Assembly: GCA_016217545.1 (NCBI GenBank)
Contig: JACRHT010000003.1
Span: forward strand, 233,501-297,500
DNA from: Opitutia bacterium
GTDB taxonomy: Bacteria; Verrucomicrobiota; Verrucomicrobiia; Opitutales; Opitutaceae
DNA: 64,000 nt
Direction: 5' to 3'
Shown: one piece after another, positions 655 to 61,400 of the stretch
Layout of the letters: each line of letters starts with the position of its first letter
Position numbering within the stretch: position 1 is the first letter of the stretch
Made by a program: the position numbers and the translations under genes
The notes under the pieces: model-generated
What the model was told of the DNA's origin: nothing
Database searches by the model: none
The model's input: only the letters and a program-made list of their open reading frames with translations

Positions 655-729
655 CGTTTGATGCCCGACCCAAATCGGACTCCCGTTGAAGGGGCGCCGC
701 TCCGACGCCACTCGGCGCGTTTCGCGGCG

Positions 730-835
730 CCTGCTGTTTCCTTCGTCGGCATGATCCGTTCAGGTTCCAAGGGTCGAGCGGCCGTTCGCACCGCAATCTC
801 AGCCTTCCGCGGAAGACACCCCTACAGGCGACGCG
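730..835 (-). promoter_or_regulatory. TPP (THI-box) riboswitch in the leader of the TonB-dependent receptor
   Basis: The minus strand reads GUAGGGGUGUCUUCCGCGGAAGGCUGAGAUUGCGG...CUCGACCCUUGGAACCUGAACGGAUCAUGCCGACGAAGGAAACAG. This matches the conserved THI-element blocks seen in E. coli thiM: GGGGUG, CUUC..GAAGGCUGAGA, ACCC, AACCUGAUCUGGAUAAUGCCAGCGUAGGGAA. It ends about 78 nt upstream of the receptor ATG. Confidence 0.85.
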
Positions 836-9421: not shown

Positions 9422-9577
9422 CAACGCGGCATAGCGGCACGCACGCAGCGGGTATTTCCGTCCGTCGCGCCGAGCCGGTATGCTGGGCGCCCTACCATGG
9501 CCGCCATCGTCGTCCTCGCGCTCCTCACCCTGCTCGTCATTCTCGACAGCAGCGGGGATTCGTCGGCGTGAAATTGA

Positions 9578-11331: not shown

Positions 11332-11359
11332 GCGGCGGGCCCGGCGGTCCCGCCCTACC
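11332..11359. repeat. Solo arm of palindromic element family A
   Basis: GCGGCGGGCCCGGCGGTCCCGCCCTACC matches the reverse complement of 40243-40270 (inside tatD) with one mismatch. No opposing arm is seen here. Located in the ggt/dctA intergenic region. Confidence 0.5.
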
Positions 11360-19648: not shown

Positions 19649-21673
19649 TCACTTCGCCGCCACCGGCAGCAGCACGCGGAACACCGCACCTTTGCCGGGC
19701 TGCGATTGCACTTCGAGGCGACCGCCTTGCAGCGTCAGCAGCTCGCGCGCGATGAAAAGCCCGAGGCCGGTCGAGTCCTCCCCTTCCCCCGTCGGCTTCG
19801 CGGAGAGTTTTTGGTAGGGCGCGAAGATTTTCGCGAAGTCCGCCGGCCCAAGCCCAGGGCCGCTGTCGCGCACCTCGGCGAAGGCCCACGCGCCGGCTTC
19901 GCCAAGCGCGACGGTGATGTCGCCGCCGGGCGGGGAGAATTTCAGCGCGTTGCCGATGAGGTTGTCGAAGACCTGGCGCAGACGCTCCGGGTCGGCGAGC
20001 ACGCGCGACACGGGCGCGGCGGCGGGAGCGAGCGTGAGGCGTTGTTCCTTTTGCGCGGCGATGGGGCGCAGGCTCTCGACGGCGGTGCGCGCGAGTTCGG
20101 CGAGATCGAGCTCGGTGGTGTGCAGCTGAAGGTTGCCCTCCTCCATCGCGGAAGCGTCGAGGAAGTCGCGCACGAGCGTGCGCATGCGCGCGGTGTCGGC
20201 CTGGATGCCGGCGGCGAGGCGGCGGACGTTGGGTTCGTCGTGCGGCGCGCGCGCGATGAGACCGGCGGTGGCATTGAGCGCGGTGAGCGGAACCTTGAGA
20301 TCGTGCGACGCCATTTGCAGGAGGCGCGATTTCAGCGCCTCCGCCTCCTCGGCCTGCGCGCGGGCGCGCTCGGTGGCGGCGCGCATCTTGCGTTCGGCGC
20401 GCAGACGGACGAGTTGCACGAGAATGACCGCACCGAGCAGAGTGACGCCGCCGATCAAGCCGGCGGCGAGGGCGAGATTTTGCGAGCGGCGCTGCTCGAG
20501 TTCGGCGGTCTTCACATCCTGATCGCGGCGCAGGAGACGGATCTGGAGCTCGCGCTGCTCGTCGCGATAGCGCGCGCGCAACTCGTCCATGCGGCGCCGG
20601 TCCTCCTCGCGCTGGAGTTGCTCGGTGGCGGCGGCGAGTTTGCGCTGGCTGTCGAGGGCGAGAGCGAGTTCGCCGCGCGCCTCGTAGGTCACGGCGAGTT
20701 CGCGATGAATCTCGGCGAGCACCTCAGCGCTTTCGAGCGTGCAGGCAACTTGGAGGGCGGTGAGGAGGTGCGCGAGCGCCTCGTCGAGCCGGCCGGCGTG
20801 GCGGAGAACGGTGCCGAGTCGGCGGTGCGTGTTGGCGATGTAGCGACGATACTTGAGCGCCTCGAAGGTGGTCAGCGCGCGGCTGAGATAGCTGAGCGCT
20901 TTTTCGGTGTCGCCCTGGCCATCGGCCGCGAGGCCGAGATTGGTGAGCGATTCGGCGATGGCGCGGCGGTTGCCGTAGCCTTCGCGCACGTGGAGGGCTT
21001 CGCCGTGGATCGAGATGGCGCGCGGGTAATCTCGTTTGCCGAGGTAATAGTTGCCGAGGCTGTTGAGCAGACTGGCGCGCATGCGCTCGTCCTTCGCGTC
21101 GAGGGCGTAAGCGAGACCACGATTGAAGTGCTGCAGCGCGTCCTCGTCGCGCCCGTAGCGCTGGTAAGTCAGGCCGAGTCCGCCGTGGGTGCGCGAGAGC
21201 AGTGCGGCATCGCCGAGCGATTCGGCGAGGCGCAACTCCTCGAGGTGGCGCTCAAGCGAGCCGGGGTAATCGCTGAGGTTCCAGTAGAGGCGGCCGAGCA
21301 GGTAGAGAAAATCGATCTGCAGGCGGACGTCGCCGAGCTTGCGGGCGCGAGCGAGTCCGTCGCGCGCGCCGGCGAGGCCGTCCGAATAGTCGCCGCGGCG
21401 GCGCTGGAGGTTCACCACGGTGACGAGCGCGTGGAGCGCATCGGACTCGTTGGCCGATTGCGCGAGCGTCTGCCGCGCGGCTTCCCAAACCTCGTCGCCG
21501 TCGGGCGTCTCGGAGTCCGTGGCGGTGGAAACCGGTGGCCCCGGATCGCGAGCGACGCGCGGCGCCGATTGGGCGCCGGCGAAGAGCGGCAGCCCGAGCA
21601 GCACTAGCAACCAGCACGCGTGACGGAACACGGCCGGCAAATCGCCAGAAGCGCCGCGGGCTTTCAATGCCAA
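19649..21673 (-). CDS. Sensor histidine kinase with N-terminal TPR repeats
   Basis: Signal or TM segment, several TPR-like repeats, a TM, a coiled coil, HisKA (MASHDLKVPLTAL) and HATPase_c (GLGLFIARELLTLQGG). The track start is a TTG, so the true start is uncertain. Confidence 0.85.
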   Translation of the reverse strand: MALKARGASGDLPAVFRHACWLLVLLGLPLFAGAQSAPRVARDPGPPVSTATDSETPDGDEVWEAARQTLAQSANESDALHALVTVVNLQRRRGDYSDGLAGARDGLARARKLGDVRLQIDFLYLLGRLYWNLSDYPGSLERHLEELRLAESLGDAALLSRTHGGLGLTYQRYGRDEDALQHFNRGLAYALDAKDERMRASLLNSLGNYYLGKRDYPRAISIHGEALHVREGYGNRRAIAESLTNLGLAADGQGDTEKALSYLSRALTTFEALKYRRYIANTHRRLGTVLRHAGRLDEALAHLLTALQVACTLESAEVLAEIHRELAVTYEARGELALALDSQRKLAAATEQLQREEDRRRMDELRARYRDEQRELQIRLLRRDQDVKTAELEQRRSQNLALAAGLIGGVTLLGAVILVQLVRLRAERKMRAATERARAQAEEAEALKSRLLQMASHDLKVPLTALNATAGLIARAPHDEPNVRRLAAGIQADTARMRTLVRDFLDASAMEEGNLQLHTTELDLAELARTAVESLRPIAAQKEQRLTLAPAAAPVSRVLADPERLRQVFDNLIGNALKFSPPGGDITVALGEAGAWAFAEVRDSGPGLGPADFAKIFAPYQKLSAKPTGEGEDSTGLGLFIARELLTLQGGRLEVQSQPGKGAVFRVLLPVAAK

Positions 21674-22122: not shown

Positions 22123-22863
22123 ATGAACCCTCGTCCCCACCTGTTCGGCGTCCTCGCCGGACTGTTTCTCGCCGCCGGCCTGGCCGGCTCGGCCGCCATC
22201 GTCGCCTCGACGCTCACGCGCCTGAACGACAGCAATTCCATCAACGTTACCGGCGCTGCACGCCGCAACGTCCGCTCCGATCTCGTGATTTGGAACGCCA
22301 GCTTCAGCGCCGATGCGCCGACGCTGCTCGAGGCGCAGCAGCGCCTGCAAGCCGACCTCGCGAAGGTCACCGAGTTTCTTCGCCAGCACAACGTCACCGA
22401 AATCGCGGCCGAACCGGTCGTCATCCGTGAGCTCACCACGAAGCGAAAGCTCGAAGGCGACGACGGAAACTACGCCGTCGTGCGAGTGGGCTACCGGCTC
22501 ACGCAGGCGTTCGAAGTGCGCTCGAGCGACGTGGAAGGCGTGCCGAAGCTGGCTGCGAATTGCGGGCCGTTGATCGAGCAAGGCGTCGCGCTCGCGTCGG
22601 GCGGCTTCGCGTTCATCTACACGAAAGCCGGCGAAGCGAAGGTCGAAATGATGGCCGAGGCCACGAAGGACGCTCGCGCTCGGGCGGAGCTGATCGCCGC
22701 GCAAGGCGGTCGCCGCGTCGACGGGCTGCGCAGCGCGAAGGTGGGCGTCGTGCAAATCAACCCGCTGCACTCGAGCGCGACGAGCTGGGAGGGCAACAAC
22801 GACACGACCGCCCTCGACAAGACGATCATCGCCACGATCAGCGCATCGTTCGCAATGAAGTGA
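22123..22863 (+). CDS. SIMPL domain-containing protein (DUF541, periplasmic/immunogenic protein family)
   Basis: 246 aa with an N-terminal TM. Layout INVTGAARRNVRSDLVIWNASF...YRLTQAFEVRS...AEATKDARARAELIA is typical of SIMPL/DUF541. Confidence 0.7.
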   Translation: MNPRPHLFGVLAGLFLAAGLAGSAAIVASTLTRLNDSNSINVTGAARRNVRSDLVIWNASFSADAPTLLEAQQRLQADLAKVTEFLRQHNVTEIAAEPVVIRELTTKRKLEGDDGNYAVVRVGYRLTQAFEVRSSDVEGVPKLAANCGPLIEQGVALASGGFAFIYTKAGEAKVEMMAEATKDARARAELIAAQGGRRVDGLRSAKVGVVQINPLHSSATSWEGNNDTTALDKTIIATISASFAMK

Positions 22864-22887: not shown

Positions 22888-22972
22888 GGTAGGGGCGCTT
22901 GCCCTCAAGCGCCCTTAAAGCGAGGCGCACGCGTGAGATTGCCGAGGGCCGTTGAGGGCAACGGCCCCTACC
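22888..22972. repeat. Palindromic element family A, intergenic copy
   Basis: GGTAGGGGCGCTTGCCCTCAAGCGCCC ... GGGCCGTTGAGGGCAACGGCCCCTACC. Termini GGTAGGGGC/GCCCCTACC are inverted. Each arm is a 9-bp stem with a 4-nt loop. The right arm is identical to 46579-46605 inside hrpA. Confidence 0.8.
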
Positions 22973-38376: not shown

Positions 38377-39129
38377 TCAATTCGTCGCGAGCAACGCCTC
38401 GAACTTCGCCGCGTCTTCGGCGGTGTCGACGCCGATGGTCGGGTCTTCGGTGACGTCGATCGCGATCGGGTAGCCGTTTTCGAGGACGCGGAGCTGCTCG
38501 AGTTTTTCGATCTGCTCCAGCTTGCCCGGCGCCATGCGCACGAATTGCTCCAAAAAGTCGCCGCGATACGCGTAGAGGCCGAGGTGCTTGTAGCAGCCGT
38601 TGGCGGCCAGCCAGGCGTCGTCGACCTTGCCGGCGAGGTCTCGGGCGTAGGGCATCGGGGAACGGGAGAAATACAGCGCACGGTTCGCGGCGAGGGCGCG
38701 GACGACCTTAACTTGGTTCGGATTGTAGAAATCCTCGGCTTTGCGGAACGGCGTGCAGAGCGTCGCCATCGGGGCGTCGCCTTGGATGAGCTTCTGGAGC
38801 GCGCGGATCTGGCCACCGGAGACGAGCGGCTCGTCGGCCTGGACGTTGATGACGTAGCTGGCGCGCACGGTGCGGTTGGCCTCGGCGAGGCGATCGGTGC
38901 CGCTCGGATGGCGCGCGTCGGTCAAAATCGCCCGAAACCCGGCACCCTCTATGCAGTCGGCGAGCATCGGATGATCCACGGCAAACCACAGCGGAAGGTC
39001 GGGCGCCTCGGCCGTGATGCGCTCGGCCACCCAGAGCACAAGCGGCTTCCCTTTAATGACATGCAGCAGCTTGCGCGGAAAGCGGGTGGACTCCAGACGA
39101 CAGGGCACGATGAGCGCGAACGCGGGCAT
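38377..39129 (-). CDS. kdsB: 3-deoxy-manno-octulosonate cytidylyltransferase
   Basis: 250 aa. [18 protein letters not shown]...GTDRLAEA...[10 protein letters not shown]...[10 protein letters not shown]. Confidence 0.9.
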
Positions 39130-39206
39130 ATTCGGGAATCTGGTTGCAAGCCGGGGGCGGAGCGGCTTTTTCGGAACCCTTTATTTTGAGCCGATAACTA
39201 CCTGCA

Positions 39207-39503
39207 ATGGAAAAGAGTGATACCAATACCGCCGCCACCCACGTGAGGGAGCTCCTTGTCGAAAACAAGATGGGCATTCACGCGCGCCCGGCCGCGATGA
39301 TCGTGCGTGTCACCAACAAGTTCAAATCGGACGTCTTCGTCGAAAAGGACGACGAGCAGGTGAACGGCAAGAGCATCATGGGCCTCATGATGCTGGCCGC
39401 CGCCAAAGGCTCGAAGATCAAGTTCGTGGCCACCGGCGAGGACGCCGAGAGCATGCTCAACGAGCTCGAAGCGCTCTTCGCGAAGAAGTTCGACGAGGCC
39501 TGA
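39207..39503 (+). CDS. ptsH: HPr family phosphocarrier protein
   Basis: 98 aa with active-site region GIHARPAA and regulatory-Ser region NGKSIMGLMMLAA. Confidence 0.9.
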   Translation: MEKSDTNTAATHVRELLVENKMGIHARPAAMIVRVTNKFKSDVFVEKDDEQVNGKSIMGLMMLAAAKGSKIKFVATGEDAESMLNELEALFAKKFDEA

Positions 39504-39554
39504 GCGCGCCTCGCGGCGCGAAGACGCCAAGGAGCGAGTAACAAGTGCCAAGTA

Positions 39555-39583
39555 GGGCCGGTCTCCGACCGGCCTTTTTATTT
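39555..39583 (+). terminator. Rho-independent terminator after ptsH
   Basis: GGGCCGGUC-UCC-GACCGGCC followed by UUUUUAUUU. Confidence 0.8.
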
Positions 39584-39586
39584 GGC

Positions 39587-39688
39587 GGTGGTCGCTGGCG
39601 TCCCGACGGCACCGCGACAGAGACGCGAGTCGCCGCCGCTGGATTTCGCGCCCCGCGTTTGTCGCCGCCGGGACGGCAGCGACCACCT
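39587..39688. repeat. Inverted-repeat element family B, copy 2
   Basis: Left arm GGTGGTCGCTGGCGTCCCGACGGC, right arm GCCGCCGGGACGGCAGCGACCACCT (39664-39688). Lies between the ptsH terminator and the tatD stop. Confidence 0.65.
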
Positions 39689-39703
39689 TACGACCCACGC
39701 GTC

Positions 39704-40564
39704 TCAAATTCCGAAAAATCGCCGGGCATTCGCGGTCGAACGCGCCGCCAGCTCGTCGACCGTCACGCCAAACACGCCCGCCGCGAACTCCGCCGTGTGG
39801 CGGAGGTAGGCCGGCTCGTTGGGCTTCCCGCGATGCGGCATCGGCGTGAGATACGGCGCATCCGTCTCGAGCATGACGCGGTCGAGGCCCTGCGCGCGGG
39901 CCGCCTCGCGGATGTTTTCCGCGGTCTTGTAGGTCAGGATGCCCGTGAACGACCCCACCCCGCCGCGCCGGTTCAACTCGGCAATCTCGGCCGTCCCTTC
40001 GGTGAAGCAGTGGAAAACCACCTTCGCCCACTCGACGCCGCTCGCATCGATCATCTCGACGCATTCGCGGAACGCCCCGCGCGAATGCACGACCACCGGA
40101 CAACCCAGCTTCTTGGCCAGCGCCAACCCGGCGCGAAACGCCGCCTGTTGCGTGGCAAACACGCGCTCCTCCGCCGCCGGGTCGTCCTTGGGCAAGTGGA
40201 AGCGGTCCAATCCGATCTCGCCGAGCGCGACCGGTCCGGGAAGGTAGGGCGGGACCGCTGGGCCCGCCGCTTCGATTGAGTTCGTCGGCGCGCCCGGCGG
40301 TCGCGCCCTACCCCAAAAGCCTTCCAACAGCGCGAATCGCTCCTCCCAGCGTTCATCCACGCTGCAGGGATGGATACCAGCCGTGTAGTGAACGAATCCC
40401 GCGTGCGCCGCCGCGATGTCGCGGTAGAGCCCCCAGTCGTCCGCGTCGGTCCCGATCGTGATCATCGCCTCCAAACCGGCCGCGCGGGCGCGTTCGAGGA
40501 TCGGCGCCAGCTCACCCCGCCGGGCGAAACTCTCGAGATGCGTGTGGGAATCGATCAGGCCCAT
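39704..40564 (-). CDS. tatD: TatD family metal-dependent hydrolase (carries an internal ~24-aa insertion)
   Basis: Start ATG 40564 (MGLIDSHTHLESF). Motifs include GIHP, GEIGLD, VVVHSR, FHCF and ETDAPYL. The track ORF start at 40630 is an upstream extension. Confidence 0.88.
   Translation of the reverse strand: MGLIDSHTHLESFARRGELAPILERARAAGLEAMITIGTDADDWGLYRDIAAAHAGFVHYTAGIHPCSVDERWEERFALLEGFWGRARPPGAPTNSIEAAGPAVPPYLPGPVALGEIGLDRFHLPKDDPAAEERVFATQQAAFRAGLALAKKLGCPVVVHSRGAFRECVEMIDASGVEWAKVVFHCFTEGTAEIAELNRRGGVGSFTGILTYKTAENIREAARAQGLDRVMLETDAPYLTPMPHRGKPNEPAYLRHTAEFAAGVFGVTVDELAARSTANARRFFGI
40243..40312. repeat. Palindromic element family A inserted in-frame within tatD
   Basis: GGTAGGGCGGGACCGCTGGGCCCGCC...GGCGCGCCCGGCGGTCGCGCCCTACC, with inverted termini and two hairpin arms. 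It encodes roughly GRARPPGAPTNSIEAAGPAVPPYLPG, immediately before the conserved GEIGLD motif. Confidence 0.7.
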
Positions 40565-40651
40565 CGCGCGGATTGAATGCCCATGAAAGCGAGAGGCCAG
40601 CGCTTTCGCGCTGGCCTCATGCACACACACCTGGCGTTAGGCCGGTGAAAT

Positions 40652-41590
40652 TCAGTCGGCGCGAATCTTGATGTCACCGCCGCTCGAGCGGAGCTTGAGC
40701 CGCGGCCCGCCGCCGTTAACGGTGCCGGTGAGCCGGCTCTTGCCCATGCCGCCCTTTTCGATCGTGAGAGTGAGGCCCTCGGCATCGACGTCGCCGCCCG
40801 AGGTGCTGGCATCGAGCTTGAAGCCGGTGCCCTTCTTGACGTGCACGACGACCTGACCGCCGGACGCGTGGAGCTCGGTGTCCTGTTTGATGGGCCCGGT
40901 GATCGTCGCGTGGATGTCGCCGCCGGAGGTGCTGGCGCTGACGAGTTCCTCGACGGACTCGAGCTTGATGTTGCCACCTGACGTCGTCACGGACGTCGGG
41001 CCGCCGGCGCGGCCGACGAAAATGTCGCCGCCTGACGTATGAAGGTTGGCTTTGGCCGTGCCCTCTTCGAGACGGACGTTGCCGCCGGAGGTGTGGCCTT
41101 CGACCGCTCCGTCGATCTTGGCGAACTTGAGGTCGCCGCCGCTGGTGCGGGCCTTGACGGTGCCTTTCACGCTGCCGACTTCGATGTCGCCGCCTGAAGT
41201 GCGCAGGTCGAGGTTGAACTCGCGAGGAACGGTGACCGTGTAGGAAACACTGACCGGCGGCCAGCTGCCGAACCAGTTGGTGGCCTTCTTCTCGTAGCGG
41301 GACTCGGCGATCACGGTGTTGCCCTGTTGCTCGAGGCGGAAAGTCATCTCGGCCGCGATCTCGTCGGCCTCCTTCTCGGTGTCGGCGCGGAACGTCTGTT
41401 TGGCCACGACGCGCACTTCGGCCACGTCGCCGCTCGTCACCTTGATGTCGCCGCCCTGCGTGAGGCCGGAAAAATCACCGCCGGGCTGCACGGCGAAGGT
41501 CTTTTCCACGGTGCGAACGATCTTGGCGTCGACGGCGGCCGGAACGGCGAGCATCGCACCCACGGTGAGCAGGCAAAGCAGGGATTTCAT
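40652..41590 (-). CDS. DUF4097 domain protein (putative adhesin-like beta-helical protein)
   Basis: 312 aa with a signal peptide. TSGGDI/TSGGN(V/I) motifs recur about every 20-25 aa, typical of DUF4097. Confidence 0.7.
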   Translation of the reverse strand: MKSLLCLLTVGAMLAVPAAVDAKIVRTVEKTFAVQPGGDFSGLTQGGDIKVTSGDVAEVRVVAKQTFRADTEKEADEIAAEMTFRLEQQGNTVIAESRYEKKATNWFGSWPPVSVSYTVTVPREFNLDLRTSGGDIEVGSVKGTVKARTSGGDLKFAKIDGAVEGHTSGGNVRLEEGTAKANLHTSGGDIFVGRAGGPTSVTTSGGNIKLESVEELVSASTSGGDIHATITGPIKQDTELHASGGQVVVHVKKGTGFKLDASTSGGDVDAEGLTLTIEKGGMGKSRLTGTVNGGGPRLKLRSSGGDIKIRAD

Positions 41591-45947: not shown

Positions 45948-48900
45948 TCAGCGCGGGAGATTTCCCAGCGCGCCGAAGCTCTTGAACACCGTCTTGCCTT
46001 GGGTCGGCAACGACACCGCCACCTTCGGCTTTGCGGGCGCAGCATCGCCACCCGCCGCCGCCTCGCCCTCCTTGCCCGCCGCCAGATCGCGCAGCACCTT
46101 TTCGAGACGCACGGCGGAAACCGGCTCCGCCGTGCCGAGTTCCTGCGCGAACAGGCTCACGCGAAACTCCTCCACCAACCAGCGGAACTCCCCCGCTTTG
46201 TCGCCGAGCCGCTGCAGGGCCTGAACGAACGGCTGCAGCTCGCGCGCCCGCGAAGCGTCCTTCGCCGGGTCGCGTTTCCAGCGCTCGGCGCGCGCCTGCA
46301 TGCCCTTCAAGTAGCGCGGCAGCTCCTTCACGCGCGCGAACGGCGTGCGGCGCAGGAAATCCGGCGGCAGCAACGCCCCGAGATCGCCCTCCATGCCCGG
46401 ATACGGCGTCTTGTGCGTCTGCAGCGCCAGCCGCAGCGTCAGCGTTTCACGCAACCAGTCGACGAGCTTCGGCACCAGCCCGCGCAGATCGGCTTTCGCG
46501 TCGCCGACGGCGCGCTCGAAATTTTCCTTCGTCAGGTAGGGGCGGTTGCCCCCAACCGCCTTCGCCTCGCTCGCGGCAGGGCCGTTGAGGGCAACGGCCC
46601 CTACCCGTCCGCCCTCCGTCACCCAGCGCCGGATCGATTCCAGCGCATCGGCCTGCAATTTCTCCAACGGCGCCAGCGTCACCGTCAGCGTGCCGATCGC
46701 CCGCAGGTCGCGCAGATCCTTCTCGAGCCAGCCGAGTTCATAGCGCAACGCCGTCTCGAGCAACCGCCGCAGACCGACGCGGGTCGCCGCGCGCGCCTCC
46801 TCGGAAGTGGCGAACAGCCGCACCGCCACGCCCGCGTCGCCCGCCTGCAAACCCGGATAAGCGAGCACCGGCACGCCGGCCTGCTCGCTCACGACGACCG
46901 ACTCGGGCAGGTCACCGAACTTCCAGCCGTCCGCGGGCGGTTTCTCCCACTTCTCCCGCGCGGCGCGCCACGTCGCGTTGTCGGCTTTCGCCGCGCGCTG
47001 GCTGACCTCGCGCTGCTTCGTGCCGAGCTGGCTCTGCAATTCCGCGAGGTCGCGGCTCGCCCCGAGCACCGCACCGCGCCGGTCAAGCACCTCGACGCGC
47101 ACGCGCAAGTGGTCGGGCAGCGTCCTCGCGTCCCAGACGCGCGGATCGATGCGCACGCCGAGGCGCTGCGTGAGCACCTCGGCCAGCGCCTGCGCGAGCG
47201 TCGGTTGCGGCGCGCGCGCCGCGATGAGTTGGATCTCGTCGGTGATTTTCTGCGCGGTCTCCGCGAGCGGGATCAGCGTGCGGCGCTGCTCCTTCGGGAG
47301 CGCTTTCAGCATCAATTCGATCTTCTCTCGCAAATGCCCCGGCACCGCCCAGTCGAGCGTCGCGGGCGAGAGATCGGCGGCCTCGTCGAGGTTCACGCGG
47401 AGCGTCACGCCATCGTCGTCCTGACCTGGCTTGTAGGCGTAATTGAGCGGCAGCGCGCGATTCTCGAGCGGGAGCTGCTCCGGGAACGCGCCGTGGTCGT
47501 GCGTCTCCTCGATCTGCGGCTTCAGGTCGTCCTCGCCCAGGAAAAGAAACTTCGGCTCGGTCGTCTGCCGGTGGCGGACGTAGTCGACGAGTTCGGGCAC
47601 GCTGCTGATTCCGAGGTAGGGCGAGTCGTCCCGACGAGCCGCGCCCTGTCGCGCCGCGACCGGCGGCTCATCCGGAGGATTCGCCCTACCCTCCGGCATC
47701 AGGCGCCGGGCGTAGAACCGATACACCGCCTCGTCGAGGTTCATGTAACCCGCCGCGCGCAGGCGCGTGAGCACGCTCTCGGCCTTTTCGCGGATGCGAC
47801 GGTTGTGCGCGATGAAATCGAGCGGGAACGTCACCGTGTCGCCGACAAGTCCCTCGCGGATGAAAATCTCCGTGGCGTGCTTCGGATCGATTTTGCCGTA
47901 GCCGACCGAGCGGGTGTCGAGCTCGAGATTGTAGAGCCGGCGGCGCTCCTTCACGAGCACGCGGCCGGACTCGATGCTCCAGAACGGCTCGCTGTGCGAC
48001 ACGCGCAGCAGGTGCGCGCCGAGGTCGAGGGCCCACAGCGGGTCGATGCGCGCGCAAGTGCGCGCGTAGATGCGGCCCGTCTCCATGATCTCGGACGCCA
48101 TGAGCCAGCGGGCGACCTTGGGCTTCGCGGGGCCCTCTTTGCGCGGCGCGACGACCTTCTCGCGCTGCGGCCTTTCGAAGAGCGACGAGCCGGGAAACAC
48201 CGCGACCTTGCGATCGTGGGCCGCGTGATAGGTGCCGTCGTCGAGTCGCGTGGCGATGTTGCCGAGCAGGCCCGCGAGAATCGCGCGATGGATCGCGCGG
48301 TAACCCGGCGAGCCGGGCACGAGGTCGCGCACCGACTCGGGCGTGGCCGCCGCCTTGCGCCGCGCCGCACGGCCGGCATCGCGCGGGTCGGCGCCGGCGC
48401 CGTCGAAGACCGATGTGTCCTCGAAGCCCTCGCCGCCCTCGATCGTGTCGATGAGTTGCGCGTGGACGTCGCGCCACTCGCGCATGCGCATGAACGACAG
48501 GAAATGGCTCGTGCAGAACTTCCGCAGCTTGCCGAGCGTCATCGTCTCGAAGTCGTCGTGATACGCCTCCCAGATCGAAAGCAGCGTGAGGAAGTCCGAA
48601 TCGGGATGCGTGAACCGCCGGTGCGCGGCATCGGCTTTCTGCTGCGCGTCGAGCGGCCGTTCGCGCGGGTCCTGGATGCTCAGCGCGGCGGCGATGATGA
48701 GCGCCTCGGCCATGCATTTCTCGTCGCGCGCCTGCAGCACCATGCGGCCGACCGTCGGATCGACCGGCAGGCGGGCGAGGTCGCGCCCGAGCTCGGTGAG
48801 CACGCCCGCCTCGTCGATCGCGCCGAGTTCGTGCAGCAAAGCGTAACCGGCGCGAATACCCTTGGCCGGCGGCGCGTTGAGGAACGGGAACTCCTCGATG

Positions 48901-50120
48901 TCGCCGAGGCCGAAGGCTTTCATGCGCAGGATGACGTCCGCGAGATTGCTGCGCTGGATTTCCGGCTGCGCGAAACGCGGGCGCTCGTTGAAATCCTGCT
49001 CCGAATAGAGGCGGATGCACACGCCGTTGCTCACGCGGCCGCAGCGGCCCTTGCGCTGGTCGGCGCTGCTCTGCGCCACCGGTTCGACGGGCAGCCGGCG
49101 CGTGCGGCTCTGCGGCACGTAGCGGCTGATGCGCGCGAGGCCGGTGTCGATGACGAAGCGGATACCGGGAATGGTGAGCGAGGTCTCCGCGATGTTCGTC
49201 GCGACGACGATTTTCCGTTTCTGCGTCGGCGCGAAGACGCGTTGCTGCTCGGCGTTGGTCAACCGGCCGAAGAGCGGCACGATCTCGATGTGTCGCGCCT
49301 TGCGCCCTTCGAGTTGATCGGTGACTTCGCGGATGTCGCGCTCCGTCGGGAGAAACACGAGGATATCGCCGTCCGCGCTCTCGCGCAGCACGCGCTCGAC
49401 CGCCTCGACCGCACCGTCGATGTAGGTGAACTCGTCGCGATCGCGCCGTGTAGCCGAGGGCGTCGACCCCGGCCCGGGGCCATCGGCCCCGGCTACAGCC
49501 ATTTCCTCCAGCGGCGCATAAATCACCTCCACCGGATACGTGCGCCCCGACACTTCGACGATCGGTGCGCCGTCAAACGCCTCGGAAAACGCCTGCGTGT
49601 CGATCGTCGCCGAGGTGATCACGATCTTCAGGTCCGGCCGGCGCAGGCGCAGGCGGCGAAGGTGGCCGAGGATGAAATCGATGTTGAGCGAGCGCTCGTG
49701 CGCCTCGTCGACGATGATGGCGTCGTATTCGCGCAGCTCGGGATCGCCCTGCAACTCGGCGAGCAGCATGCCGTCGGTCATGAACTTCACGACGGTTTGC
49801 GACGAGGTCTGGTCGGCGAAGCGGATTTTGCAGCCGACCTCCTTGCCCCAATCGACGTTCAGCTCCTCGGCCACGCGGCGCGACACCGACGCCGCCGCAA
49901 CGCGGCGCGGCTGCGTGCAGGCGATCTTGCCGCGCGTGCCACCGCCGGCGGCGAGGACCATTTTGGGAATCTGCGTCGTCTTGCCCGAGCCGGTTTCGCC
50001 GGCGAGCACGATCACCTGGTGTTTCAGCAGCAGGCCGATGATTTCGTCCGCGCGCGCGCTGATCGGCAGTTCCGGGGGGAACTCGATGCGGAAGCTCGGT
50101 TGTGGGCGTGGCGGCGGCAT
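45948..50120 (-). CDS. hrpA: ATP-dependent RNA helicase HrpA (DEAH-box)
   Basis: Start ATG 50120 (MPPPRPQPSFRIEFPPELPI...). Motifs GETGSGKTTQ, DEAHERS, SATID, TNIAETSLT and QRKGRCGR, plus a long HrpA C-terminal region. The track ORF extension to 50801 is rejected. Confidence 0.9.
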   Translation of the reverse strand: MPPPRPQPSFRIEFPPELPISARADEIIGLLLKHQVIVLAGETGSGKTTQIPKMVLAAGGGTRGKIACTQPRRVAAASVSRRVAEELNVDWGKEVGCKIRFADQTSSQTVVKFMTDGMLLAELQGDPELREYDAIIVDEAHERSLNIDFILGHLRRLRLRRPDLKIVITSATIDTQAFSEAFDGAPIVEVSGRTYPVEVIYAPLEEMAVAGADGPGPGSTPSATRRDRDEFTYIDGAVEAVERVLRESADGDILVFLPTERDIREVTDQLEGRKARHIEIVPLFGRLTNAEQQRVFAPTQKRKIVVATNIAETSLTIPGIRFVIDTGLARISRYVPQSRTRRLPVEPVAQSSADQRKGRCGRVSNGVCIRLYSEQDFNERPRFAQPEIQRSNLADVILRMKAFGLGDIEEFPFLNAPPAKGIRAGYALLHELGAIDEAGVLTELGRDLARLPVDPTVGRMVLQARDEKCMAEALIIAAALSIQDPRERPLDAQQKADAAHRRFTHPDSDFLTLLSIWEAYHDDFETMTLGKLRKFCTSHFLSFMRMREWRDVHAQLIDTIEGGEGFEDTSVFDGAGADPRDAGRAARRKAAATPESVRDLVPGSPGYRAIHRAILAGLLGNIATRLDDGTYHAAHDRKVAVFPGSSLFERPQREKVVAPRKEGPAKPKVARWLMASEIMETGRIYARTCARIDPLWALDLGAHLLRVSHSEPFWSIESGRVLVKERRRLYNLELDTRSVGYGKIDPKHATEIFIREGLVGDTVTFPLDFIAHNRRIREKAESVLTRLRAAGYMNLDEAVYRFYARRLMPEGRANPPDEPPVAARQGAARRDDSPYLGISSVPELVDYVRHRQTTEPKFLFLGEDDLKPQIEETHDHGAFPEQLPLENRALPLNYAYKPGQDDDGVTLRVNLDEAADLSPATLDWAVPGHLREKIELMLKALPKEQRRTLIPLAETAQKITDEIQLIAARAPQPTLAQALAEVLTQRLGVRIDPRVWDARTLPDHLRVRVEVLDRRGAVLGASRDLAELQSQLGTKQREVSQRAAKADNATWRAAREKWEKPPADGWKFGDLPESVVVSEQAGVPVLAYPGLQAGDAGVAVRLFATSEEARAATRVGLRRLLETALRYELGWLEKDLRDLRAIGTLTVTLAPLEKLQADALESIRRWVTEGGRVGAVALNGPAASEAKAVGGNRPYLTKENFERAVGDAKADLRGLVPKLVDWLRETLTLRLALQTHKTPYPGMEGDLGALLPPDFLRRTPFARVKELPRYLKGMQARAERWKRDPAKDASRARELQPFVQALQRLGDKAGEFRWLVEEFRVSLFAQELGTAEPVSAVRLEKVLRDLAAGKEGEAAAGGDAAPAKPKVAVSLPTQGKTVFKSFGALGNLPR
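46535..46605. repeat. Palindromic element family A inserted in-frame within hrpA (copy 1)
   Basis: GGTAGGGGCGGTTGCCCCCAACCGCC...GGGCCGTTGAGGGCAACGGCCCCTACC. The right arm is identical to the intergenic copy at 22946-22972. It encodes ...GRVGAVALNGPAASEAKAVGGNRPY.... Confidence 0.7.
47615..47690. repeat. Palindromic element family A-like, within hrpA (copy 2, more degenerate)
   Basis: GGTAGGGCGA (47615-47624) and TCGCCCTACC (47681-47690) are perfect 10-bp inverted termini. The region encodes ...EGRANPPDEPPVAARQGAARRDDSPY.... Confidence 0.5.
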
Positions 50121-55391: not shown

Positions 55392-55411
55392 AGCCGAAAG
55401 GCCCCTTGGGG

Positions 55412-58400
55412 TTACAATCCCGTGACGACGCCCGCGGCCGTGACGTCGACCTTGAGCGTGCCTTGGCCCGTGGTCATCACGCTGCCGCCGGGGGCGATGG
55501 TGATGACGGTGGAGCCGTTGGCGACGGCAGCGGTGACGGTGTAGCCGGTGCTGGGCGCGAGGTCGGCCACGAGGACGTAGGTGTCCTCGGTCGGGACCGT
55601 GAGGGTGAAGCTGCCGGCGATGGGCGCGGCGCTCTTGCTGAAGAGCACGGCGTAGTTGCCGGCGGCGTTGTGGATGATGGTGCCCTCGGCGGCGGCCGTG
55701 CTGAGGTTGCCCGCGGCGGCGGTGAGCGCGGTGACGTTGCCGGCTTGCGCGGCGGACGCAGAGGCGTCGAGCACGGTGAGCCAGGTGTTGGTCGCGGCGG
55801 GCGTGCCGGGGCGGACTTCGAGGCGGTAGACCTTGTGGTAGTTGAACAGGTCGACGGTGTTCACGACGTGGCCGGCGGGCAGCACGGTGGTCACGCGGCC
55901 GCGGAAGAGGTTACCCCCGAAAGCGGCGCGAGTGTCGAGGACGTCGAAGCGGTGCGTGCCGGCGGCGGCGGTCTGCTCGGTGGGAGCGGCGGCGACGTGC
56001 CACGCCATCCAGTTGTCGGTGGCGGCGTTGTTCACCGCAGTGCGGTCGTGCACGACGAAGAGTTGCGGACGCAGGTAGACGACGGTGCGAGTCCAGAGAT
56101 CGATGGGGTGATCGCTGAAATACATCCCCTCGAGATTGGCGCCGCGCATGAGGACGTAGTCGGTGCCTTCCTCGAAGCGCGAGAGCGTGGTGGCGGTTTC
56201 GCCGGGGCCGGAAGCGCCTTGGCCGTAGTAGCCGCCGGTGCGGGCCGCGTAGTAGGTGTTGAAGATGCGGCGCGCGCCGGGGACGCCGTCGACGGGCGAG
56301 CGGTCGTAGACCTCGTTGTAGATGTTGGTGAAGACGCTGCCGGCGCCGTCGGAGGTGCCGGGGGTGTTGCGCAGGAGCGCGCCCCAAGCGTTGACGACGA
56401 ACTGCACGCCGCCGCGCTGGATGGCGAGGCCGCCTTGGTCGAAGTGTTCCTCGGCCGACTGGTCGTAGCCGGTGTAGGGGCCGGCTTGGAACGAGGCCCA
56501 CACGGCGTCGCTGGCCCACGAGCTGCGCATGGCGACTTCGCCGGCGCCGGGCGTGGCGTAGCTGAGCGCGGTGCGGTAGGCGGCGGTGGGCGCGGTGTTG
56601 TCGAAGAACAGGAAGTCGGCCCAAGGCTGGATGCTGTTCACGCCTTGCTGGCTGCGGAGGTCGAGCGTGTAGCGCTGCGCCATCGGAGTGTTGTCGCCGT
56701 TGGAGAGACGGAGGAGGCCGGTGTATTCGGTGGCCCAGGTGGCGTCGGTGGAGGTGAAGTTGTCGCCGTCGTAGATGAGGCCACGATCGGAGACGGTCTT
56801 CATGTCGGGCCAGGTGAACTGGGTGACCCACTTGACGTTGCCGTCGGGATAACCGTGCGGGTGCTCGGCGTCGTGGATGAGATCGAGGCCCTTGGCGGTG
56901 AAGGCGGCCGCGAGCGGGCGGAGCATAGCGAGGGTCTCACCCTTGCCGTAGCCCCAGCCGTCGGGAGCGGAGCCGCCACTGAGCCACTGCTGGTGGAAGG
57001 GTTGCACGAAGTTGAAGTGCACGCGAGTGAGCCAGTCGTTCCACATGGCGGGGCCTTGGGGATTCTCGCCTTCGGTGGCGAGGGCGCCGAGGGCCTTGGC
57101 CGAGTAGTAACCGGCGAAGTAGTTGCCTTGCGGGAAGGAGCGGCCGAAGCCGCCGGACTCGTAGTCGGCGATCCAGCGGTTGATCTCGGTGTAGATCTGC
57201 GCGCGGTCGGAATCGGTGAGGGTCTCGAAGATCCAGTCGTAACCGATCGCGAGCGCGGGCACGTAGGCGCGGATCGCCCAGCCGGAGTCGATCAGCGAGC
57301 GTCCGTGGTGGATCGGGTCGGAGAGGGCGAGGAGCACCTCGCGCTCCTTGGCGGCGTAGCGCGCGGCGCGGACCGGATCGACGGTCTTGGCGACCATGTA
57401 GCCGAGCGCGAGCTCGAAGGACGGCTGCATGTAATCGTAGTATTGGTAGCCGCCGCAGATGGTGTCGCTGGCGTTGGGCTCGTCAGGATAGGCGACGCGC
57501 CAAGTGACGTAGGTGTCGCAGGCGTTGCGGAGGCGAATCCAGGCGGGATCGTTGGCCTGCGCGCGCGCCACGAGAGCGGCGAGCGAAGCGGGCGTCACCC
57601 AGATGCGCGGGTGCGAGACGTTGCCGGTGCCGGGCACGTAGATCGTGACGACCGTGGAGCGCGTGCTGGTGCCGATCTCGTTGGTCGCGCTCAGCGTGTA
57701 GGTGGTGGTGGCGCTCGGTGAGACGGTGTAGCTGTTGCCCGTGACTTCGCCGATGTCGGGCGAGATGCTGATGCGATCCGCGCCGGAGACCGACCACTTG
57801 AGCGTGGAATTGGCGCCCGCCTGGATGAAGGCCGGCTGCGCGTAGAAGGAACCGATGACCGGAGCCGTCGGACCGGTGACAGTCACCGTCGTCGTGGCGG
57901 TGGCGCTGGAGCTGCCGAGCGAGGCCGTGATGGTGTAGGTCGTGGTGGTGGCCGGCGTGACGGTGTAGCTGTTGCCGGTGACGATGCCGGGGCTCGCGCC
58001 GACATCGGCGGCGATGGTGACCTTGTCGGCGTTGGCGACGGACCAGTTCAGCGTCGTGGAGGAGCCGATCGCGATCGTCTCCGGCGAGGCGGCGAAGGAG
58101 CTGATCGTCGGGGTCGGCGGCGGACCGACGCGCACGGTGAGCGATTTGAAGATCGTGGTGTTGGTTTCGCCGTTCCAACCGGAGACGGAGTAGCGAGTCG
58201 TGGTCTGCGGGCGAACGACGAGCGTGCCGTTGGCCGGGACGGAGCCGGGGTCGCCGCCGGCGTCGGCGGACATCCACAGGCTGCCCATCTTCGTGGTGGT
58301 CCAGGCGAGCGTGACGGCTTCGCCGGCCTCGATGCTGTCGGACGAGGCGGTGAAGGTGTCGATCGACGGGCCGGTGGAAGTGCTGACCGTGACGGTGGCC

Positions 58401-61400
58401 GTGCGCGTGACGCTACCGGCGGTGTTGGTGGCAGTGAGCGTGTAGGTCGTGGTTGCCGCCGGTGAGACATTGCGCGAGGTGCCGGTGACGGCGCCGATGT
58501 CGGGCGAAATCGTCACGCTGTCGGCGCCGGTGACGGTCCACGCCAGCGTGGCCGTGCCACCGGGCTGGATGGTGCTCGGCGTGGCGGTGAAGGAGCCGAT
58601 CGTCGGGGCCGGCGCGGTGGCGGCGGAGACGGTGATCGTCGCTTGGGCCGACGCGGTGGCGTCAGCGGCGGAGACGGCCTTCACGTGATAGGTGCCGGCG
58701 ACGGCGGGCGCGGTGTAGACACCGGAGCTCGTGATCGAGCCGCCGGCGTTTTCCACGACGCTCCAAGTGACGGATTGGTTCGTGCTGCCGAAGACGGTCG
58801 CGGCGAAGGTCGCGGTGGCGCCGGTGCTAAGGGATTTCGTGGTCGGCGAAACCGAGACGGTGACGCTGGTCGGCGCGCCGCCATCGGGGAGGCCGAACTG
58901 GTCGGCGGCGTTGGCCGCACCGACGCCGACGGCGCCGATGTCGTTGCCTGCGCCGCTCGTCGGATCGCCAGCGTCAATGAGCGGGCTGCCGGCGGTCGGC
59001 GTGTAGTAGTTGCGGTAGGTCGCGAGGATTTGCTGGAGCGTGAGGGTGCGGTTCCAGACGAGGCCGCGATCGATCGAGCTGTAGCTCGGCGGCGTGGGCG
59101 TCGCGAAGAGCGGATCGACCTGGGCGTTGACGTCGCCGACGTCCTGCGCCGGGTGGCGGCTGTCGTCGTAGTTGCGGAGCGAGGATACGCCGGGGTTGTA
59201 GAACAGGTTGTAGTTCGCGTTGACGGTCGCGGTCGGCTTGATGCTGACGATCGGGTTGCCGTGGAAGCGGTAGAAGACGTTCGACGCGATGGCGCTGGTC
59301 GCGCCGTCCTCGGCGAGGAGCGGGATCTGGTTCTGGCTCACGCCGAAGCCGTCGAGCGTGTTGTTGGTGAACTGCACGCCTTGCGGAGCGTAGACGATGA
59401 ACACGCCCGCGCGGCTGTTGAAGCCTTCGGCGAAGACGTTGTGGTGGACCTGCGCGTTGCTCTGGCTGATCCAGAGCCAATCTTCGTCGGCGTTCAGCAC
59501 GAGGTTGTAGCGGAAGATGCCGCCGGTGCCGCGCACGGGCCAGGAGCCGCCGCTGACGAGGTTGTGTTCGACGACGAGGTCGGCGCCGCTGTTCATCTCG
59601 AAGTTATTGCCCTGGCTCCAACCGCCAAAGTAGAGCTGCTCGGAGAGGTTGCGGCGGACTTGGATGCCGCTGCCGCCTTCGAGGGAAATACCGACGCGCG
59701 GTCCGATGAGGACGTTGGTGTCGGCGTCGGTCGAACCGCCGATGAGCCAGTTGCGGGCGTTCTTCACCTCGATGGTGGAGAGGCCGACGTTGTTGCCTTG
59801 GAAGAAGTGTTGCGCAGTCGAGCTGCCGAGGAGGCGGATGACGGGGTTCGTCGCGTCGGGACCGTTCGTGAGGTTGATCGGGAACTGAGCGACGTTCATA
59901 TACATGTTCGAGCGGAAGTCGTTCGCACGGAGGACGGCGGTGGCGGAGCCGTTGGCCGTGAGGTCGAGCGAGTTGGTCGCATCGAAGACGCAGTTCTCGA
60001 TGTCGATGGCGGAGGTCGTGGTGACCTTGATGCCGGGCGTCGGATCGAGGAGCACGCCGAGGTTGGTGACGTCGACGTTCTTCAGCGTGAGGCGGCCGGT
60101 CCACGAATCGCTCGAGCTGATGGTGAAGCCATTGCCGTTGAGGCGAACGCGAGCGGACGGCGAGCCGACGAGCTCGTAGTTGGCCGCGCCGGTGAGCACG
60201 ACGTTTTCGGTGAGATTGATCACCTGCGCGTAAGCCGGCGGCTCGGCGACGGTGATGGACACGACGGCGCTGTCGAAGACCTTGCCGTCGATGAAGTGGC
60301 CGCGCGCCCAGACGCGGTGTTCGCCGGCGGGGAGGCCGGAGAGGTTGGTCTTGTAAACCCAGAACTCAGACTGGGAGCCGGGGATCGTGGCTTGGACGAC
60401 GTCGTCCACCATGATCTCGACGGACGCGGCGCGGTGGCGGTCGGGCCAGTTATTGATGTCCTCCGCGGATACGAAGACGCGGATCGAGCCGGGCGCGAGG
60501 AACTGTTGGCCGGCGTTCGGGCTCATGAGACGGACGGAGTGCGAGCCGTCGCCCGGGGGATTGACCGGCGGCGTGACGACCGGGGCCTTGACCGTGACGG
60601 TGGCTTCGGCGGTGGCGTTCGAATCGGCGAGGGCAACCGCGCGGACGTGATAGGTGCCCGCAATCGCCGGAGCGATGTAGAGGCCGGCGCTGTTGATCGA
60701 GCCGCCGCCCGTTTCCACGACGCTCCACAGCACGACTTGGTTCTGGCTGCCGGTCACGGAGGCGCTGAAAGCCTGCGTGGCGCTGGTGTTGAGTTGGACG
60801 GCCGCGGGATTGATCTGCACGGTCACCGGAACGGGATCGGTGACGGTGACGACGACATCCTTCGTGACGCTGCCGCCCGTGTTGGTCGCCGTGATCGTGT
60901 AGGTGGTCGTCGCCGTGGGGCTGGCGGGCACGGACGTGCCGGTGACCGCGCCGATGCCGGGCGAAACCGAGAGCGTGTCGGCGCCGGTGACGTTCCAAGT
61001 CAGCGTGGTGGAGGAGCCGCGAACGATCGTGGCCGGATCGGCGGTGAAAGAGGTGATCGCCGGCGCGGGCGTCGCGGGCTTGACGGTGAGCTGGGTGTTG
61101 CTGTGCGAAACGACGCCGCCGGGGCTCGTCGCCGTCATGGTGTAGTTGGTCGTGACGGCGGGAGAGACGTCGATCGAGCCGGTGTTACCGGTGAGGGGGC
61201 CGGGGCTCTGGCCGACATCGGCCACGACGGAGATCGTGGCGGCGCCGCTGACATCCCAGATGAGGTGCGCGGTTTCGCCGACGGTGATGGAGTTGGGCGC
61301 GACGGCGAAGGAGCGGATCACCGGGGCCGGATCTCGCACGGTGATTTTCACGCTCGCGGTGACGGAGCTCGTCTCGTTCGTGGCGGTGAGGAGGTAGTTG

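Follow-up and report, generated by a model that had tools for sequence, protein, structure and literature searches.

We analysed a stretch of 64,000 nucleotides (nt) from an Opitutia bacterium of the Opitutaceae (GenBank assembly GCA_016217545.1, contig JACRHT010000003.1, positions 233,501 to 297,500 of the forward strand), hereafter called the window, whose tatD gene contains a 70-nt palindromic element at 40243-40312. This element, E2, is a GTAG-tagged doublet of repetitive extragenic palindromic (REP) sequences, resembling the doublets known as REPINs and of the kind associated with REP-associated tyrosine transposases (RAYTs). According to our preferred reading, to which we give a probability of almost nine in ten, this doublet landed in frame in tatD and is translated as a tolerated loop of the TatD protein.

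A REP doublet within tatD

E2 has the sequence GGTAGGGCGGGACCGCTGGGCCCGCCGCTTCGATTGAGTTCGTCGGCGCGCCCGGCGGTCGCGCCCTACC and ends in the inverted 9-nt termini GGTAGGGCG and CGCCCTACC. On the coding (minus) strand, it is composed of a left arm (40312-40286), a 16-nt spacer (40285-40270) and a right arm (40269-40243), the spacer being flanked by two inverted units of about 27 nt that each consist of GGTAGGGCG and an imperfect palindrome. A hairpin is present within each arm (GGCGGG..CCCGCC and GGCGCG..CGCGCC), and the two arms differ by a G/C at stem position 10 and a complementary C/G at position 22, so that the stem is kept. The folding energy of the element is -55.1 kcal/mol (z = -7.3), and none of 200 shuffled sequences folds equally well. 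The initial annotation of this DNA had placed a palindromic element here, in frame in tatD and before the GEIGLD motif, and its sequence, termini and two hairpin arms are as it described them. It had also matched the left arm, in reverse orientation and with one mismatch, to 11332-11359, and had likened the element to an intergenic sequence at 22888-22972; the left arm indeed matches the reverse complement of 11334-11359 with a single mismatch, and the design of the intergenic element is the same.

E2 is a real repeat element, beyond what chance would produce. The heptamer GGTAGGG by itself is not enriched in the window (13 occurrences for about 15 expected from base composition). Pairs of the form GGTAGGG...CCCTACC, at most 200 nt apart, are found 4 times for about 0.16 expected, and the window contains 25 arm-like matches, as compared to 0-2 in shuffled sequence. 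Isolated occurrences of the heptamer at 9490, 19813, 25085 and 50838 were not accepted as elements. No Rfam family covers the elements.

The host gene (39704..40564, minus strand) encodes a tatD/ycfH-like hydrolase of 286 aa (Pfam PF01026, E = 2.6e-60), whose true start is the ATG at 40564. Within its open reading frame (ORF), reading through E2 on the minus strand yields GRARPPGAPTNSIEAAGPAVPPY(L) shortly ahead of GEIGLD; the insert corresponds to residues ~85-108 and GEIGLD to residues 115-120. Residues H7, H9, E116, H160, H185 and D235 are invariant, indicating that the catalytic residues are intact.

Comparison with orthologues distinguishes empty from filled alleles. TatD homologues from metagenome-assembled genomes (MAGs) of Opitutaceae (Ca. 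Didemnitutus, Opitutus, Lacunisphaera) are 66-97% identical and 263 to 310 aa long, and the DUF4097-tatD-HPr-kdsB synteny is kept in all six orthologous loci (6/6). In the window, the DUF4097-like protein encoded immediately upstream of tatD (40652-41590, minus strand) carries reiterated TSGGD/TSGGN motifs. When the window is aligned by BLAST to the syntenic Ca. Didemnitutus locus (88-89% nt identity), the aligned segments are 39086-40234 and 40313-41164, and the break between them falls on E2. Empty alleles read TGG TCC GGA CAA AAT GGG CCG CGC, and the filled allele of the window reads TGG/GGTAGGGCG...CGCCCTACC/TT CCC GGA CCG. In an alignment of 121 TatD sequences (120 homologues and that of the window), 37 have only a short loop at this site, mostly of 5 residues (FW-SGQNG-PRPVALGEIGLD), and the others carry inserts; distant orthologues have no homologous loop, and the segment is lineage-specific. 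As the insert recurs in many independent assemblies, an assembly artefact was rejected. Judged by these alignments, E2 is an in-frame insertion relative to its syntenic orthologues. Compared to the nearest empty allele, the filled one is longer by 57 nt and its protein by 19 residues (286 vs. 267 aa); this is less than the length of E2 because the 5-codon loop is absent from the filled allele. The initial estimate of about 24 added residues thus describes well the coding content of the element (23 codons and 1 nt), but not the lengthening of the protein.

When lineages carrying the insert are compared with each other, tatD is much better conserved at codon position 2 (identity of 0.83-0.84) than at position 3 (0.50-0.55). 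This shows that tatD has stayed functional with the insert and has remained under purifying selection in its presence. The AlphaFold2 model of the protein (mean predicted local distance difference test score, pLDDT, of 86; predicted template modelling score of 0.85) is close to the solved structures 2GZX and 1YIX, with template modelling scores of 0.81-0.86 when normalised by target length. In this model, residues 85-112, which contain the insert, form a low-confidence coil (block-mean pLDDT ~46-68) between helix 3 (residues 73-84) and the strand carrying GEIGLD (residues 113-118). Solved TatD-family structures, of 253-265 aa, lack this loop, in line with what the initial annotation stated of known TatD proteins, and HMMER leaves residues 74-109 unaligned to E. 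coli YcfH (1YIX). In a TIM barrel, the loops leading from a helix to a strand are found on the face pointing away from the active site. The Pro/Gly/Ala-rich loop encoded by E2 is probably disordered.

Further copies in the window and in other genomes

The window contains five doublets and one solo REP, i.e., 11 arms. The inverted doublets E1-E4 form long hairpins, with folding energies between -50 and -56 kcal/mol and z-scores between -5.4 and -7.3, which 0/200 shuffles equal. The solo arm (GGTAGGGCGGGACCGCCGGGCCCGCC; 11334..11359, minus strand) is, like E2, of type A, and is intergenic, between two minus-strand genes. E1 (22888..22972) is an 85-nt doublet of GGTAGGGGC type, located between convergent ORFs ending at 22863 (plus strand) and 23087 (minus strand). 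The three other doublets are in frame in hrpA (45948..50120, minus strand; 1390 aa) and are read on the same strand. E3 (46535..46605; 71 nt) corresponds to aa 1173-1195, VGAVALNGPAASEAKAVGGNRPY, and shares an identical right arm with E1; E4 (47615..47690; 76 nt) is of type B and corresponds to aa 811-835, GRANPPDEPPVAARQGAARRDDSPY. E5 (49450..49496), which was detected via its peptide, is a tight head-to-head GTAG REP dimer of 47 nt, corresponding to aa 209-223, VAGADGPGPGSTPSA, and is gapped when aligned to E. coli HrpA (9GFT). Among HrpA orthologues, some have nothing at the sites of E3 and E4, and others have different REP types there. The HrpA ORF of an Oleiharenicola MAG (L072) has three REP-derived segments, of which GRPRESAAGPAVPPYP is found around aa 235, GRAGTPLPAERRGTESAPYL occupies the E3 site and RAGTPQPAERRGAESAPYL lies close to the C-terminus. 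With this MAG, the window and Oter_0009 of Opitutus terrae (PMC3733652), hrpA is a recurrent host gene.

Species-representative genomes were scanned for GGTAGGGCG-N40-70-CGCCCTACC. At least 120 genome loci match this doublet pattern, and nearly all of the 136 elements among the loci listed share the two-hairpin design; the type-A arm is found in at least 120 metagenome loci. Neither of the two findings that the initial annotation had named as refuting its reading, a homologous segment in distant orthologues or a lack of further copies, is thus borne out. The listed genome loci are overwhelmingly from Verrucomicrobiota (Opitutaceae, Limisphaerales, Chthoniobacterales, Akkermansia, Pedosphaera, Udaeobacter, Methylacidiphilales), with further ones in the related Kiritimatiellia and Lentisphaerae (MAGs of Lentisphaerales and Victivallales). 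In the window arms and in these 136 elements, an arm consists of G-GTAG-GGCG (or GGGC) followed by a stem of 6-9 bp with a loop of 3-4 nt, and the stems of different arms show compensatory changes (GCCGTTG..CAACGGC in F1, GCGCTTG..CAAGCGC in F2, GCGGTTG..CAACCGC in F3).

Whether a copy is read through as coding sequence was determined by a codon-position GC test, which classifies the window elements correctly. Among the genome loci listed, 14 of the 119 evaluable doublets (12%) are read through and 105 are not; among the metagenome loci listed, this is the case for 9 of 107 units with the arm type of the tatD element (8%), and not for the remaining 98. Hence, 88-92% of the evaluable listed copies are extragenic. 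Ten read-through candidates from other genomes were checked, and all of them (10/10) lie in genes with Pfam domains, encoding GlnRS, PurL, PrpD, IspG, MurC, a DEAD helicase, NuoG, an MFS transporter, a DUF58 protein and a LuxE-like protein. The family is thus mainly extragenic with a steady in-frame minority, to which the tatD copy belongs.

Proteins with HUH/Y motifs are encoded beside elements in five of the listed loci, and in two of these (L100 and L112) the gene is flanked by elements on both sides. The ORFs of L102 and L112, which were both submitted to the NCBIfam model NF047646 ('REP-associated tyrosine transposase'), pass its cut-off of 80 with 83.3 and 84.9 bits, respectively; the Pfam Y1_Tnp matches of the HUH/Y-motif ORFs are weak. 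No target-site duplication is detected, the direct repeats abutting 139 elements being distributed as in shuffles, and no conserved target motif is found in 278 element flanks, both as expected for HUH-type single-strand transposition.

Some observations on these loci are reported here for completeness. In a Verrucomicrobiae MAG (L074, 6351-6686), four tandem GGTAGGGCG...CGCCCTACC copies of 66-67 nt, spaced by ~90 nt, form a clustered array similar to the bacterial interspersed mosaic elements (BIMEs). Eight contigs labelled as Bifidobacterium, Klebsiella or Akkermansia MAGs (L030, L031, L050, L054, L067, L103, L131 and L134) have 58-67% GC, carry typical Verrucomicrobial REP doublets and are probably mis-binned or mislabelled; in L131, the arms are identical with those of E2. 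Seventeen IMG/VR viral contigs (L001-L017) have the full doublet pattern and could be prophage-adjacent host DNA or misclassified. In the window, GGTAGGGCGCGAAGATTTTCGCGAAG (19813-19840) combines a GTAG tag with a small palindrome (CGCGAA..TTCGCG), possibly in coding sequence; it could represent a different family as a solo REP, or have arisen by chance, and is not counted. A weak, degenerate type-A-like arm with 5 mismatches is found at 515-540, near a thiamine pyrophosphate (TPP) riboswitch (721-833, minus strand; Rfam RF00059, 59.5 bits for a gathering score of 54.3). Finally, diverged direct repeats (D1-D8; up to ~10 copies) extend over ~55400-63100, with start-to-start distances mostly of ~234-261 nt or multiples thereof (such as 474 nt); on the minus strand, this block probably encodes a giant surface protein made of repeat domains.

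Origin and history of the tatD insert

To account for these results, we propose the following scenario. The REP doublet would be a non-autonomous element of the kind mobilised in trans by RAYTs (HUH/Y1), which act on single-stranded hairpins, and a copy would have inserted into the tatD loop between helix 3 and strand 4. At the start of E2, the frame GG TAG GG has a stop, and the frames GGT AGG GCG and G GTA GGG are open. The tatD ORF thus stayed open because the element is GC-rich, because two of the three frames are open at its start and because the net gain of 57 nt is a multiple of three. The element would then be translated as a Pro/Gly/Ala-rich loop, which the enzyme may tolerate because this helix-to-strand loop lies opposite the catalytic face. 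In-frame insertion would have occurred three more times, in hrpA, and the tatD insert would later have been lost, decayed or arm-replaced in separate lineages.

The orthologues give some indications about this later history. The identical junction after the Trp codon, TGG/GGTAGGG, is where elements of no fewer than four REP families (types A, B, C and D) begin, and a GTGG-tagged family (type E) begins one codon further along. One orthologue (P0008) has retained the 5-codon loop, with an element after it; another (P0020) has a bare GGTAGG against the downstream flank, which is a deletion footprint, and a third (P0039) has a decayed or deleted remnant. Insert states are interleaved on the TatD neighbour-joining tree (~18 occupied/empty changes and ~44 type changes), but, with its 261 alignment columns, this tree is noisy and gives too many changes, so that these figures show interleaving only and do not count events. 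Type-A elements of exactly 70 nt are found in the window, in P0037 and in P0057, and the chimeric element of P0078 has the same length; all of them are colinear. That of P0078 is composed of a type-A spacer and right arm (27/27 nt identical to the window) but of a perfect type-B left arm. When these three orthologues are compared to the window, 10-12 of the 16 spacer positions are identical, i.e., the spacer diverges at the rate of the tatD gene, whereas right arms are identical at 26-27 of 27 nt in genes that are only 70-73% identical. This excess is significant with respect to both gene identity (P ~1e-4) and third positions (P ~1e-7).

The most economical reading is that the tatD insertion is old and shared across genera, by descent or recombination. 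An old insertion having near-identical arms across genera, together with the whole-arm swap in P0078, suggests homogenisation in situ: the arms could be selected, or repeatedly re-homogenised and sometimes swapped, relative to the genomic REP pool, before occasional decay and loss. One possibility, which we put forward tentatively and at slightly less than even odds, is that REP arms in coding sequences are not mere decaying passengers but are kept near the genomic REP pool, or replaced arm by arm, while the spacer and the host gene drift, through RAYT-mediated re-templating or gene conversion in situ. If so, the loops of housekeeping enzymes would track the REP population of the genome, and the tatD helix-3/strand-4 loop and the three hrpA loops would be long-lived landing pads.

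Alternatively, the junction could be a hot spot, at which the different insert types result from repeated, independent de novo insertions rather than from one old insertion with turnover in situ. The common start of at least four families, the interleaving of insert states on the tree, the different junction used in P0008 and the occupation of both tested hrpA sites (E3 and E4) by differing types in orthologues would all be compatible with such events. However, there is no target motif or target-site duplication that could steer re-insertion to one nucleotide, and every independent event would need deletion of the same 15-nt loop. Moreover, the type-A alleles of distant clades are colinear, of exactly the same length and have homologous spacers, the chimeric element of P0078 points to arm-level replacement, and the tree overcounts changes. 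Repeated insertion therefore appears rather unlikely, and a sequence-directed form of it, in particular, was rejected on the basis of the 278 flanks.

Another possibility is that the insert has been co-opted and is selected rather than just tolerated, either because its mRNA hairpin (~30 bp) acts in cis, as a translational pause, an RNase target or an mRNA stabiliser, or because the loop is functional. The near-identity of the right arms between divergent genes, the persistence of the insert across genera and the very high stability of the hairpins could be explained in this way. Nevertheless, ~30% of the orthologues (the 37 of 121 sequences mentioned above) have no insert, and those of P0020 and P0039 have decayed or been deleted; the spacer diverges as fast as the gene, and the arm swap in P0078 alters the peptide completely, so that no specific peptide is conserved. 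In addition, synonymous positions are conserved too, which points to a process at the DNA or RNA level, the same elements are ~90% intergenic, and the loop is modelled with low confidence. Co-option is thus considered improbable.

A classical MITE (miniature inverted-repeat transposable element), descended from an insertion sequence of DDE type, whose terminal inverted repeats would be recognised in double-stranded form and which would have a target-site duplication, would also account for the inverted termini, the size of 60-90 bp and the many dispersed copies. This is very improbable: target-site duplications were not found, their distribution corresponding to the shuffled expectation, each arm has the REP design of a GTAG tag and a hairpin, solo arms exist, and the genes adjoining elements pass the RAYT model instead of encoding DDE transposases. 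As for a surface loop that Opitutaceae TatD would have had ancestrally, evolving fast and resembling repeats by GC-rich chance, loop length does vary among orthologues, but this explanation, hardly credible, was rejected, given that arms match other window or genome copies with 0-1 mismatch (those of L131 being identical), that the site forms only a short turn in empty alleles as well as in solved TatD structures, and that the nucleotide alignment breaks exactly at the element.

Several points weigh against the reading of E2 as a REP doublet tolerated in frame by TatD. First, a scan for HUH/Y motifs reveals no RAYT gene in the 64-kb window, and mobilisation by a RAYT is presumed for the source genome. 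Second, we infer that the insert is translated because the frame is intact and its flanks are under purifying selection, and near-neutrality of the insert at the protein level is likewise presumed. Third, four of the five doublets of the window are in frame within genes (one in tatD and three in hrpA), an intragenic share of 80% as compared to 8-12% in the larger sets of loci; this local excess (binomial P ~5e-4 if the background is 10%) may be due to repeated hits in hrpA, or to an unusually high intragenic load of the genome, as in O. terrae. Finally, the arms are conserved far beyond neutral decay, which a pure 'junk loop' view does not explain.

In practice, Verrucomicrobial proteins often carry Pro/Gly/Ala-rich segments of 15-30 residues, of the type "GRA...PY" or "VG...PY", that are repeat DNA and not domain features. 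Such segments make proteins seem more diverse than they are, interrupt nucleotide alignments and can lead orthology or structure analyses astray. The comparison across genera suggests that inserts of this kind may last very long at one codon junction, with arms that stay fresh or are swapped. If this is confirmed, the intact ORF would provide a natural, selectable read-out of REP/RAYT activity, and a handle on how REPs spread and are maintained.

Comparison with known systems

MITEs that are found in frame in genes, such as Correia/NEMIS in Neisseria, ERIC in Yersinia and Nezha in cyanobacteria, are, like the elements described here, small non-autonomous repeats located in or overlapping coding regions and forming RNA hairpins. 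However, they are DDE-derived, with terminal inverted repeats and target-site duplications, whereas the window elements have the REP/RAYT design without duplication.

The REPINs of Pseudomonas were reportedly described by Bertels and Rainey in 2011. RAYTs bind single-stranded REP hairpins, need GTAG, cleave at CT located 5' or 3' of the hairpin and transfer strands in vitro, cleavage and strand transfer having been demonstrated in proteobacterial systems only (PMC8266576). The elements described here share several features with the REP/REPIN-RAYT systems of proteobacteria, such as E. coli REP/BIME and Pseudomonas REPINs (Nunvar 2010, PMC2817692; Corneloup 2021, PMC8266576): (i) a GTAG located 5' of an imperfect palindrome, (ii) inverted doublets folding into a long hairpin, (iii) many dispersed, mostly extragenic copies, (iv) REPs on either side of their RAYT gene, which here concerns related Verrucomicrobia loci, and (v) the absence of target-site duplication. 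They differ from them in that the host belongs to the Verrucomicrobiota, in that several arm families coexist and form heterodimers, and in that 8-12% of the copies are intragenic and in frame, whereas proteobacterial REPs are almost wholly extragenic.

The GTAG- and CGTC-tagged REP superfamilies were defined by Di Nocera, De Gregorio and Rocco (2013; BMC Genomics 14:522; PMC3733652), who class the intragenic Rickettsia palindromic elements (RPEs) RPE-4 and RPE-6 as CGTC-tagged and restricted to Rickettsia. RPEs (Ogata et al., 2000, cited in PMC3733652) are palindromic repeats in frame in functional ORFs, which add surface peptide segments to host proteins still under selection. A behaviour of this kind had been proposed for E2 in the initial annotation, and is supported, the frame being kept and the insert being lineage-specific, at both the DNA and protein levels. 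The sequences are nevertheless unrelated, the tag is GTAG here and CGTC there, and the host of RPEs is an AT-rich, obligate intracellular alphaproteobacterium. E2 thus behaves like an RPE but, by its tag and host, is not a member of this group.

The closest system is that of O. terrae PB90-1, for which ~70 intragenic GTAG REP entries, of families GTAG-17 to -20, have been catalogued (PMC3733652). Some of its ORFs are hit twice, and that of HrpA (Oter_0009) has two REPs; other hosts are both uvrA genes, DNA ligase, dnaE2 and a DEAD helicase. Over all species in the catalogue, dimers or repeats in groups, coding for 20-30 aa, make up over half of the intragenic inserts, and recB of two Xanthomonas species has different REPs at about the same site. 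The inserts are likened to RPEs by these authors, who propose that they are placed in flexible loops (PMC3733652). The in-frame REP phenomenon is therefore already described for the Opitutaceae, and the novelty for a GC-rich lineage that had been implied in the initial annotation does not stand.

The repeats of the window and those of O. terrae are found in the same family of bacteria, combine a GTAG (or GTGG) tag with a palindrome, and are mostly dimers encoding ~15-30 residues, in frame in housekeeping genes, with HrpA hit more than once. In addition, the peptide of E5 (VAGADGPGPGSTPSA) closely resembles GTAG-17 dimer peptides (VAGVADPGPGSTSPA), as compared at the peptide level only. By contrast, the present host is another, uncultured genome, whose nearest match is Ca. 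Didemnitutus, tatD is absent from the published table, and the arms of E1-E4 (types A, B and GGTAGGGGC) give peptides missing from it. Orthologous sites were not compared across genera of this lineage in the O. terrae study, and the persistence of an insert at one junction across genera, with fresh or exchanged arms, may go beyond what was reported in 2013.

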